Assembly (NCBI RefSeq): GCF_055900595.2
Contig: NZ_CM148325.1
Length of the DNA: 64,000 nt
Strand: one strand, 5' to 3'
Shown here in pieces: positions 5,981 through 6,949 of the stretch. Numbering within the stretch: the stretch's first letter is position 1; every line of letters starts with the position of its first letter. The position numbers and the translations under genes are program-made. A model generated the notes under the pieces. It had not been told where the DNA came from, searched no databases, and saw nothing but the letters and a program-made list of their open reading frames with translations.

Positions 5981-6194
5981 TATGCAAAATATTCATAAAG
6001 ACTATCGTTTGTTTTTATTTAATTCATTTTAAATATCAATAGTTCACATCTGACAATATAAATTAATTATCGATAAATCATTTCATAAAAATATGCAGCA
6101 TTAAAAATTAATGCTATATGGTAAATTAACTATTCTGGGAATAGGGATATGAATCATCGTTAGTAGCGAACGTATTATATAATAAGGGATTGAT

Positions 6195-6911
6195 ATGAGA
6201 TACGTTATCTTATTAATACTATGGATAATAACTACTTTTCTTAGTCATCTTCAGCACAGCAACCTACTGTCTGGAGATCCTGGCATGGTTGGCGAGTATA
6301 TCGGTTCAGTATTTCTGGGGCCGTTGTTACTTCCCGTGCTTGTGTCAGGTATTCTGTGCGCATTTATTAAAAAAAAACGTAACTTCGCCAGTTTTACTCG
6401 CGGGTGCTGTTGGGTATTGGGAATCCTGCTTTTATCCAAAGTCGGCAATACGTTTCGTATGTTTACCCCGTGGCAATATACCTTTGAGAATGCTGCGATA
6501 ACAGTGACTATCCCGAACCGACACTGGAATACGGTTTCCATTAGTACTAATAAAACCATTGATATAAGAAGTGAGGATAATAGCGTCTTCATTTCTGCTT
6601 TCCGCCTGCCCGCAGGACGTAGCGCCGATGACCCGCTGGAAGCGTTAAAGAAGAAGCAGCGAGACAATCTCAAGGATCAATACAATGAGGAAGCCTTCCA
6701 GTTTCATGATTGTAATGCCAAACATTTCACCTGTAAGTATCAGGATGTGTTGATAAATTTTGATGGTCAGCAGAAAAGAACCATCAGTGTTTATCTTGAA
6801 GACACCCCCAGGGCTGTGGGGATCATTGCATTAATGGCGCCAGATACGGCAGATAAATATCGCCAACAGGCGATGGAGATTATGCTTTCCGCTAAAAATG
6901 CAGTGAAGTAA
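6195..6911 (+). CDS. Hypothetical 238-aa membrane protein (two N-terminal hydrophobic helices plus ~150-aa soluble C-terminal domain); strain-specific gene between rraA and zapB
   Basis: ATG at 6195 preceded by AAGGGA; hydrophobic segments ILLILWIITTFL and FLGPLLLPVLVSGILCAFI/CCWVLGILLL; low-GC sequence; no family recognised by eye. Confidence 0.6.
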   Translation: MRYVILLILWIITTFLSHLQHSNLLSGDPGMVGEYIGSVFLGPLLLPVLVSGILCAFIKKKRNFASFTRGCCWVLGILLLSKVGNTFRMFTPWQYTFENAAITVTIPNRHWNTVSISTNKTIDIRSEDNSVFISAFRLPAGRSADDPLEALKKKQRDNLKDQYNEEAFQFHDCNAKHFTCKYQDVLINFDGQQKRTISVYLEDTPRAVGIIALMAPDTADKYRQQAMEIMLSAKNAVK

Positions 6912-6935
6912 AAAATAAGGCGCCTTGCGGCGCCT
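6910..6935 (-). terminator. Rho-independent terminator of zapB (aggcgcc-ttgc-ggcgcct with T-run on minus strand)
   Basis: Perfect 7-bp inverted repeat at 6918-6935 followed on the minus strand by TTATTTTTT. Confidence 0.5.
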
Positions 6936-6949
6936 CTGCGTGGAAGAGA

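Follow-up and report, generated by a model that had tools for sequence, protein, structure and literature searches.

Between rraA and zapB, a 64,000-nucleotide stretch of Escherichia DNA (contig NZ_CM148325.1 of RefSeq assembly GCF_055900595.2; 'the window' hereafter means this whole stretch) carries an islet with one open reading frame (ORF), located at 6195..6911 on the plus strand and running from an ATG through 238 codons to a stop. Its product is very probably an inner-membrane protein of three helices followed by a periplasmic domain of the PsbP/Mog1/DcrB type, encoded by an accessory gene of a tiny family at an old polymorphic locus. As to its function, we tentatively favour binding of a protective or immunity-like kind on the periplasmic side of the inner membrane. 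Nearly as likely, and ranked just below this, is a DcrB-like role in the envelope, and we regard the functional finding as a lead, not a discovery.

The islet is real. The window has the gene order hslU-menA-rraA, islet, zapB (minus strand), glpF and glpK, with about 1 kb between rraA and zapB, a gap that measures 84 bp in K-12 MG1655; the near-adjacency in K-12 stated by an earlier reading, made from the sequence only, was therefore right. Alignment to K-12 splits at the rraA stop codon (5934-5936) and rejoins at the hairpin on the zapB side, so that the islet extends from about 5937 to 6916 and includes an rraA terminator of its own. This islet-type terminator is absent from K-12, where the zapB-side hairpin is the sole terminator for both genes; in the window the ORF is indeed flanked by the two terminators, as the sequence-only reading had placed it. 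That reading had also called the islet strongly AT-rich, which holds for the leader (5981-6194, GC 0.234) and not for the ORF (0.432, compared with 0.504 for the whole window); measured along the DNA, GC is 0.25-0.26 across 5900-6199 and 0.40-0.47 over the ORF.

The gene is annotated as a 'hypothetical protein' only, and the RefSeq (PGAP) start at 6285 (M31) gives a 208-residue product from which the first transmembrane helix is cut off. On sequence grounds we favour the 238-residue start, because a paralogue upstream of the gene in other strains and all distant homologues align from residue 1, because the ratio of non-synonymous to synonymous polymorphism (pN/pS) is 0.14 over codons 1-30, and because an AAGGGA Shine-Dalgarno motif sits 5 nt 5' of the ATG, the surroundings of which are invariant in all five aligned Escherichia leaders. 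Residues H18, L24, L25 and G27 are likewise invariant among close family members. Comparison of six Escherichia alleles (window, O157:H7, E. whittamii, Escherichia sp. MOD1, E. albertii and a divergent E. coli) found the gene intact in every one, with pairwise ratios of non-synonymous to synonymous substitution rates (dN/dS) of 0.10-0.28 at dS of up to 0.41; the corresponding dN/dS values for the flanks were 0 for rraA and 0.01-0.03 for menA. Within Escherichia, the rate of evolution of the predicted periplasmic domain (codons 89-238) is about double that of the membrane part (codons 1-88). The gene is thus real, accessory, chromosomal, fixed at one locus and under purifying selection within Escherichia, which sets aside two possibilities that the sequence-only reading had allowed for, namely a core gene of K-12 and a spurious ORF.

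Of 5426 complete E. coli genomes scored for the state of this locus, 679 (about one in eight) have the gene, 4717 have a K-12-like empty junction and some 30 fall outside these two counts. In 661 of the 679 carriers the gene forms a tandem with an upstream paralogue, which is 29% identical to it (E 2e-34) and overlaps its start as ATGA; the one-gene form of the window, with its 214-bp leader, occurs in 18 of the 5426. The gene is therefore solitary, as first described, in the window and not in the great majority of carriers. The two-gene form is also found in E. albertii, a species with at least two forms of the locus. Alleles of the gene and of rraA are uncoupled: between the window and a second locus (L003), dS is 0.0065 for the gene but 0.10 for rraA. 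The upstream paralogue has a dN/dS of 0.64 and may be decaying. In O157:H7 (L002, 2313-2987) it stops 12 codons earlier than in L003 (2313-3023), its stop falling at 2987 and not at 3023, which abolishes the ATGA overlap with the downstream gene. In the annotation of Shigella dysenteriae 1617, the copy (P0017) is fused to or disrupted by an insertion sequence (IS) transposase, consistent with pseudogenisation in Shigella.

The family to which the gene belongs is tiny. When 1.84 billion representative proteins were searched exhaustively with HMMER, 33 clusters were returned at E<=1e-3, about 17 of them full-length (227-241 residues) and of the same architecture. Named members come from Escherichia, Atlantibacter subterraneus, Kluyvera ascorbata, Enterobacter, Huaxiibacter and Lelliottia, and a few metagenomic members sit in unrelated contexts. 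A genome scan with a closer alignment retrieved Escherichia only, a later search with a broad profile gave no further relatives, and a profile search of six-frame translations detected no other family member in the 64-kb window or in the distant loci. In all Enterobacteriaceae contexts with a visible upstream flank, rraA lies upstream of the family member, even at about 22% identity. With X standing for the family member, the arrangements are rraA, X, zapB in Enterobacter (L011); rraA, a lipoprotein gene, X, zapB in Atlantibacter (L021); rraA, X and then esterase, major facilitator superfamily (MFS) and AraC genes in Kluyvera (L019); rraA, X (L006); X, pfkA (L007); X, zapB, glpF (L018); rraA, gene 1, gene 2, a transposase gene of the RAYT (REP-associated tyrosine transposase) type and zapB in an Enterobacteriaceae assembly (L005, Logan ERR9539427); and a 28-residue 3' fragment of rraA followed by X (L025). 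Identity to the window protein in these loci is 22-44%, beside 90-97.5% for the flanking RraA and 80-95% for ZapB.

Because homologues of only 22-44% identity occupy the same rraA-zapB region in other genera (Atlantibacter, Kluyvera, Enterobacter and further assemblies), the interval looks like an old gene-content polymorphism of the Enterobacteriaceae, shared between species and reshuffled by recombination, and not like a recent insertion. The marks of a mobile genomic island were not found either: the islet has no flanking repeats, the window's islet contains no integrase, transposase or other mobility ORF, and no copy of the family was detected in 50,697 phage genomes, IMG/VR or true plasmids. 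The description of the islet as acquired is thus not borne out.

Some details of these loci are recorded here in their own right. The transposase gene of L005 (9761-10123), between the paralogues and zapB, is of the Y1 type (REP-associated-like), and the second paralogue of that locus has an SQL tandem repeat (SQLSQLSQLSQ) after helix 3. In L025 a DUF4225 gene is found upstream and the rraA fragment (1672-1755) precedes a distant member (P0046), as a result either of an interruption of rraA at this site or of the gene having moved along with a piece of rraA. The lone match in the plasmid database PLSDB, NZ_CP141089.1, is a 4.9-Mb record and almost certainly a mislabelled chromosome.

Features of the rraA-zapB interval in the window
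Feature	Position	Strand	Remarks
rraA	5451..5936	+	conserved left flank
rraA intrinsic terminator, islet-specific	5953..5980	+	perfect 12-nt palindrome AAAAGGGGAATT/AATTCCCCTTTT (5953-5977), then T-run
AT-rich leader of the one-gene form	5981..6194	+	214 bp, GC 0.23
Candidate promoter-like site, TTCACA-16 nt-AATTAT	6043..6070	+	9/12 matches; most conserved block of the leader
Shine-Dalgarno-like AAGGGA	6184..6189	+	5 nt upstream of ATG 6195; about 6179-6200 invariant in 5 Escherichia leaders
Islet gene	6195..6911	+	ATG start, 238 residues plus stop
Three transmembrane helices (predicted)	6195..6458	+	codons 1-88; more conserved half, pN/pS 0.15
Predicted periplasmic domain, PsbP/Mog1/DUF1795 (DcrB) fold	6459..6908	+	codons 89-238, about 150 residues; pN/pS 0.29
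zapB terminator hairpin	6917..6936	-	homologous to the single bidirectional K-12 hairpin
zapB	6950..7195	-	conserved right flank

The sequence-only reading had described a membrane protein with two helices and a soluble C-terminal domain of about 150 residues. The domain stands, but the helices number three: hydropathy analysis gave three hydrophobic segments (approximately residues 3-17, 36-57 and 70-84), and an AlphaFold model built on a 26-sequence family alignment (mean pLDDT 85.3, pTM 0.73) has three long helices of 25-29 residues (2-26, 29-57 and 64-90) and, after them, a domain rich in beta strands. The loop that joins helices 2 and 3 (residues 58-69, IKKKRNFASFTR), which is predicted to be cytoplasmic, averages 4.1 K/R against 0.1 D/E in the 26 family members. 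In the C-terminal domain, W111 is invariant and P107 nearly so (the 'VPxxxW' strand), and 24 of the 26 members have exactly two cysteines, at the conserved columns of C173 (6711-6713) and C180 (6732-6734). The model places the two on neighbouring strands of one hairpin (E171-175 and E178-189), and both the cysteine pair and the 'VPxxxW' motif are kept down to 17% identity. The positive-inside pattern, together with the conserved cysteine pair, points to a topology in which the N-terminus and the K/R-rich loop would be cytoplasmic and the C-terminal domain periplasmic, where a predicted C173-C180 disulfide probably staples it. The protein has no lipobox; its sequence starts MRYVILLILWIITTFLSHLQ and its first cysteine, C55, lies inside helix 2. 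In the predicted topology the cytoplasmic parts come to two residues and the 12-residue loop, too little for a cytoplasmic signalling output, so that the protein would have to work by binding in the periplasm or within the membrane.

The modelled C-terminal domain has the Mog1/PsbP/DUF1795 (DcrB) alpha/beta sandwich fold. Its structural neighbours (scores in brackets) were an uncharacterised protein from Jonesia (3lyd, 12.7), cyanobacterial PsbP (2xb3, 12.2), PA0094 (1tu1, 11.9; the EagT6 chaperone appears in 6xrf), BT_1490 (3hlz, 11.5), PnsL1 (7wg5_f, 11.5), LpqN (6e5d, 11.1), several plant and algal PsbP structures (about 10), TplEi, a type VI secretion system (T6SS) immunity protein (5h7y, 9.8), Mog1 (1jhs, 9.7), SciW (6xrb, 9.0), DcrB (6e8a, 9.0) and Tsi3 (4luq, 8.6). 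Foldseek retrieved the same set of structures (E 5e-6 to 1e-3) and, among viral structures, three phage entries named 'lipoprotein' or 'host cell surface-exposed lipoprotein' (E 1e-6 to 3e-5).

At the level of sequence, scans of Pfam, NCBIfam, PADLOC and PHROGs gave no significant match, and PADLOC-DB yielded zero families at E<=1 for the protein and for the paralogue alike. DUF1795 (PF08786) was not listed for the window protein, nor was it among the 25 most-matched of the 42 families that the 26 members touched at E<=1. PsbP (PF01789) did not reach its gathering score; two of the 26 members touched this model (best E 0.0021) and the window protein was unmatched. When PDB sequences were searched with a profile of the 26-sequence alignment, no match was significant; PA3488 (5xmg), at E 0.094, was the best of the relevant ones. 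The automatic UniRef name of one E. albertii member, 'DUF1795 domain-containing protein', agrees with the fold and was not reproduced with the Pfam copy used. Matches to the YgiW/BOF family, which has an oligonucleotide/oligosaccharide-binding (OB) fold, were rejected, with E 0.05-0.14 and 12.7-13.9 bits against cut-offs of 25.8-108 bits, the modelled fold being of the PsbP type and not OB.

Three candidate roles had been put forward from the sequence: an orphan immunity protein, an abortive-infection or toxin-type factor, and a phage-exclusion protein. An immunity role is compatible with the modelled fold, which counts Tsi3, TplEi and PA3488 among its structural neighbours, and it is a role of this kind that we tentatively favour. 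On the periplasmic side of the inner membrane the protein would present a scaffold that binds a protein or ligand, and this scaffold would protect against an incoming envelope-acting agent, either an interbacterial toxin (for example an effector of the T6SS or bacteriocin kind) or, with lower probability, a component of a phage. Polar residues are conserved in the helices, which suggests that the membrane part may do more than anchor. We are led to a protective binder by the presence/absence polymorphism of the gene in E. coli (679 genomes against 4717 empty junctions), by the frequency of diverged tandem paralogues, by the extreme divergence between genera beside conserved flanks, and by a fold common to three periplasmic T6SS immunity proteins (TplEi, Tsi3 and PA3488). 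The faster evolution of the periplasmic domain, the uncoupling of alleles from rraA and the three phage lipoprotein fold matches were also counted in its favour.

Several points weigh against a protective binder. No toxin, T6SS, Rhs, contact-dependent inhibition (CDI) or bacteriocin gene lies beside the gene in the window or in about 12 independent contexts; the neighbours seen were rraA, zapB and glpF, or the esterase/MFS/AraC genes, pfkA and an NlpA-like lipoprotein gene. Stable synteny beside a housekeeping gene is unusual for an orphan immunity gene, and the family has neither phage or true plasmid copies nor a match in the defence and domain models scanned. The PsbP-type fold is a generic scaffold, and the best structural neighbours (3lyd, CyanoP, PA0094 and LpqN) are not immunity proteins. 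Furthermore, dN/dS was below 1 wherever it was measured and so gives no evidence of positive selection, and both the topology and the disulfide are predictions only.

The strongest alternative is an envelope accessory similar to DcrB, LpqN or CyanoP, in which the membrane-tethered PsbP-fold domain would dock on or assist a resident membrane complex or a lipid or lipoprotein pathway, as a dispensable, lineage-specific helper with no part in defence. We consider this nearly as likely as the protective binder, although such a helper sits poorly with a gene that is absent from 87% of E. coli, that has diverged so strongly between genera while its flanks have not, and that is so commonly accompanied by a diverged paralogue. 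In addition, no relation to DcrB/DUF1795 was found at the sequence level, and the protein lacks a lipobox.

A more specific form of the protective binder would make the rraA-zapB interval a locus-fixed, cross-species defence polymorphism and the protein a stand-alone immunity protein of a new type, with an Eag-like domain that catches the transmembrane segments of toxins. Incoming toxins, including pore-formers, phospholipases and those T6SS effectors that have transmembrane domains, would have their hydrophobic or transmembrane segments bound by the DUF1795/Eag-like periplasmic domain before insertion, in a mirror image of the role that Eag chaperones have in the producing cell, and tandem paralogues would widen the range of toxins recognised. 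In this specific form the proposal is unlikely.

Phage exclusion or receptor masking, with the periplasmic domain as a barrier to DNA entry or as a cover for an inner-membrane factor that phages use, fits the accessory distribution, the AT-rich DNA and the Foldseek matches to phage lipoproteins. However, those matches reflect the generic fold only, no prophage context was seen at any locus, and the family matched nothing in the phage genomes and IMG/VR, nothing in PADLOC and nothing significant in PHROGs; we therefore think such a role improbable. An abortive-infection or toxin role has no support, given that there is no PADLOC match and that the predicted cytoplasmic parts are tiny.

The regulatory sequences of the islet bear on a further alternative, namely that the gene is a functionless, decaying or neutral remnant of an ancestral gene, kept by its linkage to rraA and zapB. 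The leader of the one-gene form is 91% conserved per alignment column among E. whittamii, E. albertii, Escherichia sp. E1V33 and a divergent E. coli, and no other copy of it was found in E. coli. The promoter-like site in its most conserved block overlaps a palindrome (6060-6083), and three such sites were found in the scanned region compared with 4.3 expected by chance. Loss from most E. coli, the high dN/dS of the upstream paralogue together with its truncation in O157:H7, the IS-disrupted copy of S. dysenteriae, and an AT-rich leader with a promoter-like site not above chance would all suit a remnant. The window's gene, on the other hand, is intact and constrained in all six Escherichia alleles, its leader and ribosome-binding site are conserved across species, and the cysteine pair and 'VPxxxW' motif persist in the most distant members, and we regard a mere remnant as a poor explanation.

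Some further properties of the leader and its surroundings were noted. The leader itself was considered as a decayed paralogue and rejected (local alignment score 18, shuffle mean 21); the sole possible trace of a paralogue is 12 nt at 5983-5994 that resemble the region of the paralogue's start codon, and neither E. albertii nor E. coli SCPM conserves the short ORF that starts at this point. The two-gene form has only about 15-30 nt from the rraA terminator to its first start codon, and its expression would need read-through from rraA or a promoter further upstream. At the other end, the U-tract of the zapB terminator overlaps the stop codon of the islet gene (region 6909-6936); with no U-tract on the plus strand this hairpin would be a poor terminator for the islet gene, transcripts of which may read through into zapB in antisense. 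An Rfam search of 5300-7700 gave only a sub-threshold sraA match (E 0.84).

A second variable islet of low GC (0.37-0.41) lies elsewhere in the window, at 51300-55200 between fdhE (50344-51273) and fabY/yiiD (55207-56196). It contains a 617-residue ORF (52978-54831, minus strand) with no Pfam match. In the RefSeq annotation of a near-identical genome, this islet holds yiiF, yiiE, a transposase gene and a hypothetical protein. Of the 5426 complete E. coli genomes, 973 contain at least 80% of the segment, and nadS or IS621 is found there in other strains.

If the protective binder proves true, an envelope defence gene will have gone unrecognised in hundreds of sequenced E. coli, O157:H7 and O145 among them, and in their relatives E. 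albertii and E. whittamii, and it is one that sits in a housekeeping locus away from toxin clusters and mobile elements, where defence-island searches do not look. Whatever the function, our analyses define a small family with no Pfam model and a new architecture in which three helices are joined to a PsbP/DcrB-type fold with a cysteine pair, argue for moving the RefSeq start so that the 208-residue product becomes one of 238 residues, and document a clean three-state gene-content polymorphism. Annotations of O157:H7 and of many other genomes already list the gene as hypothetical. No paper on it came up when the literature was searched by RefSeq protein accession, by old gene name and by guessed O157 locus tag, and no account was found of a protein in which a periplasmic PsbP-type domain with a cysteine pair is joined to three transmembrane helices.

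Among known systems, DcrB (DUF1795, PF08786; PDB 6e8a), an inner-membrane-anchored periplasmic lipoprotein of E. coli and Salmonella, is alike in fold. The islet protein differs from it in having no detectable sequence similarity, in being accessory and fast-evolving, in its conserved cysteine pair, and in its anchor, which would consist of three helices and not of a lipid-modified cysteine. The T6SS immunity proteins TplEi/Tli5 (5h7y), PA3488 (7wdk, 5xmg) and Tsi3 (4luq) are periplasmic and have the same fold; in contrast to them, the islet gene has no adjacent effector in any context examined and its product has the three-helix anchor in place of a signal peptide or lipobox, the non-significant profile match to 5xmg being the sole hint of a relation in sequence. 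The Eag chaperones (EagT6/PA0094, 1tu1; SciW, 6xrb; DUF1795) keep the N-terminal transmembrane domains of T6SS effectors stable until these are secreted (PMC12881460). They act inside the producing cell, whereas the islet domain, for which a periplasmic location is predicted, is fused to three helices of its own, with no effector encoded nearby. PsbP, CyanoP and PnsL, which are extrinsic lumenal subunits of photosystem II or NDH, and the mycobacterial proteins LpqN, Mtc28 and Apa belong to unrelated organisms and systems. Taken together, these comparisons show a protein that fails the hidden Markov model tests for DcrB/DUF1795 and for PsbP and yet belongs, by its fold, to the Mog1/PsbP/DUF1795 superfamily.
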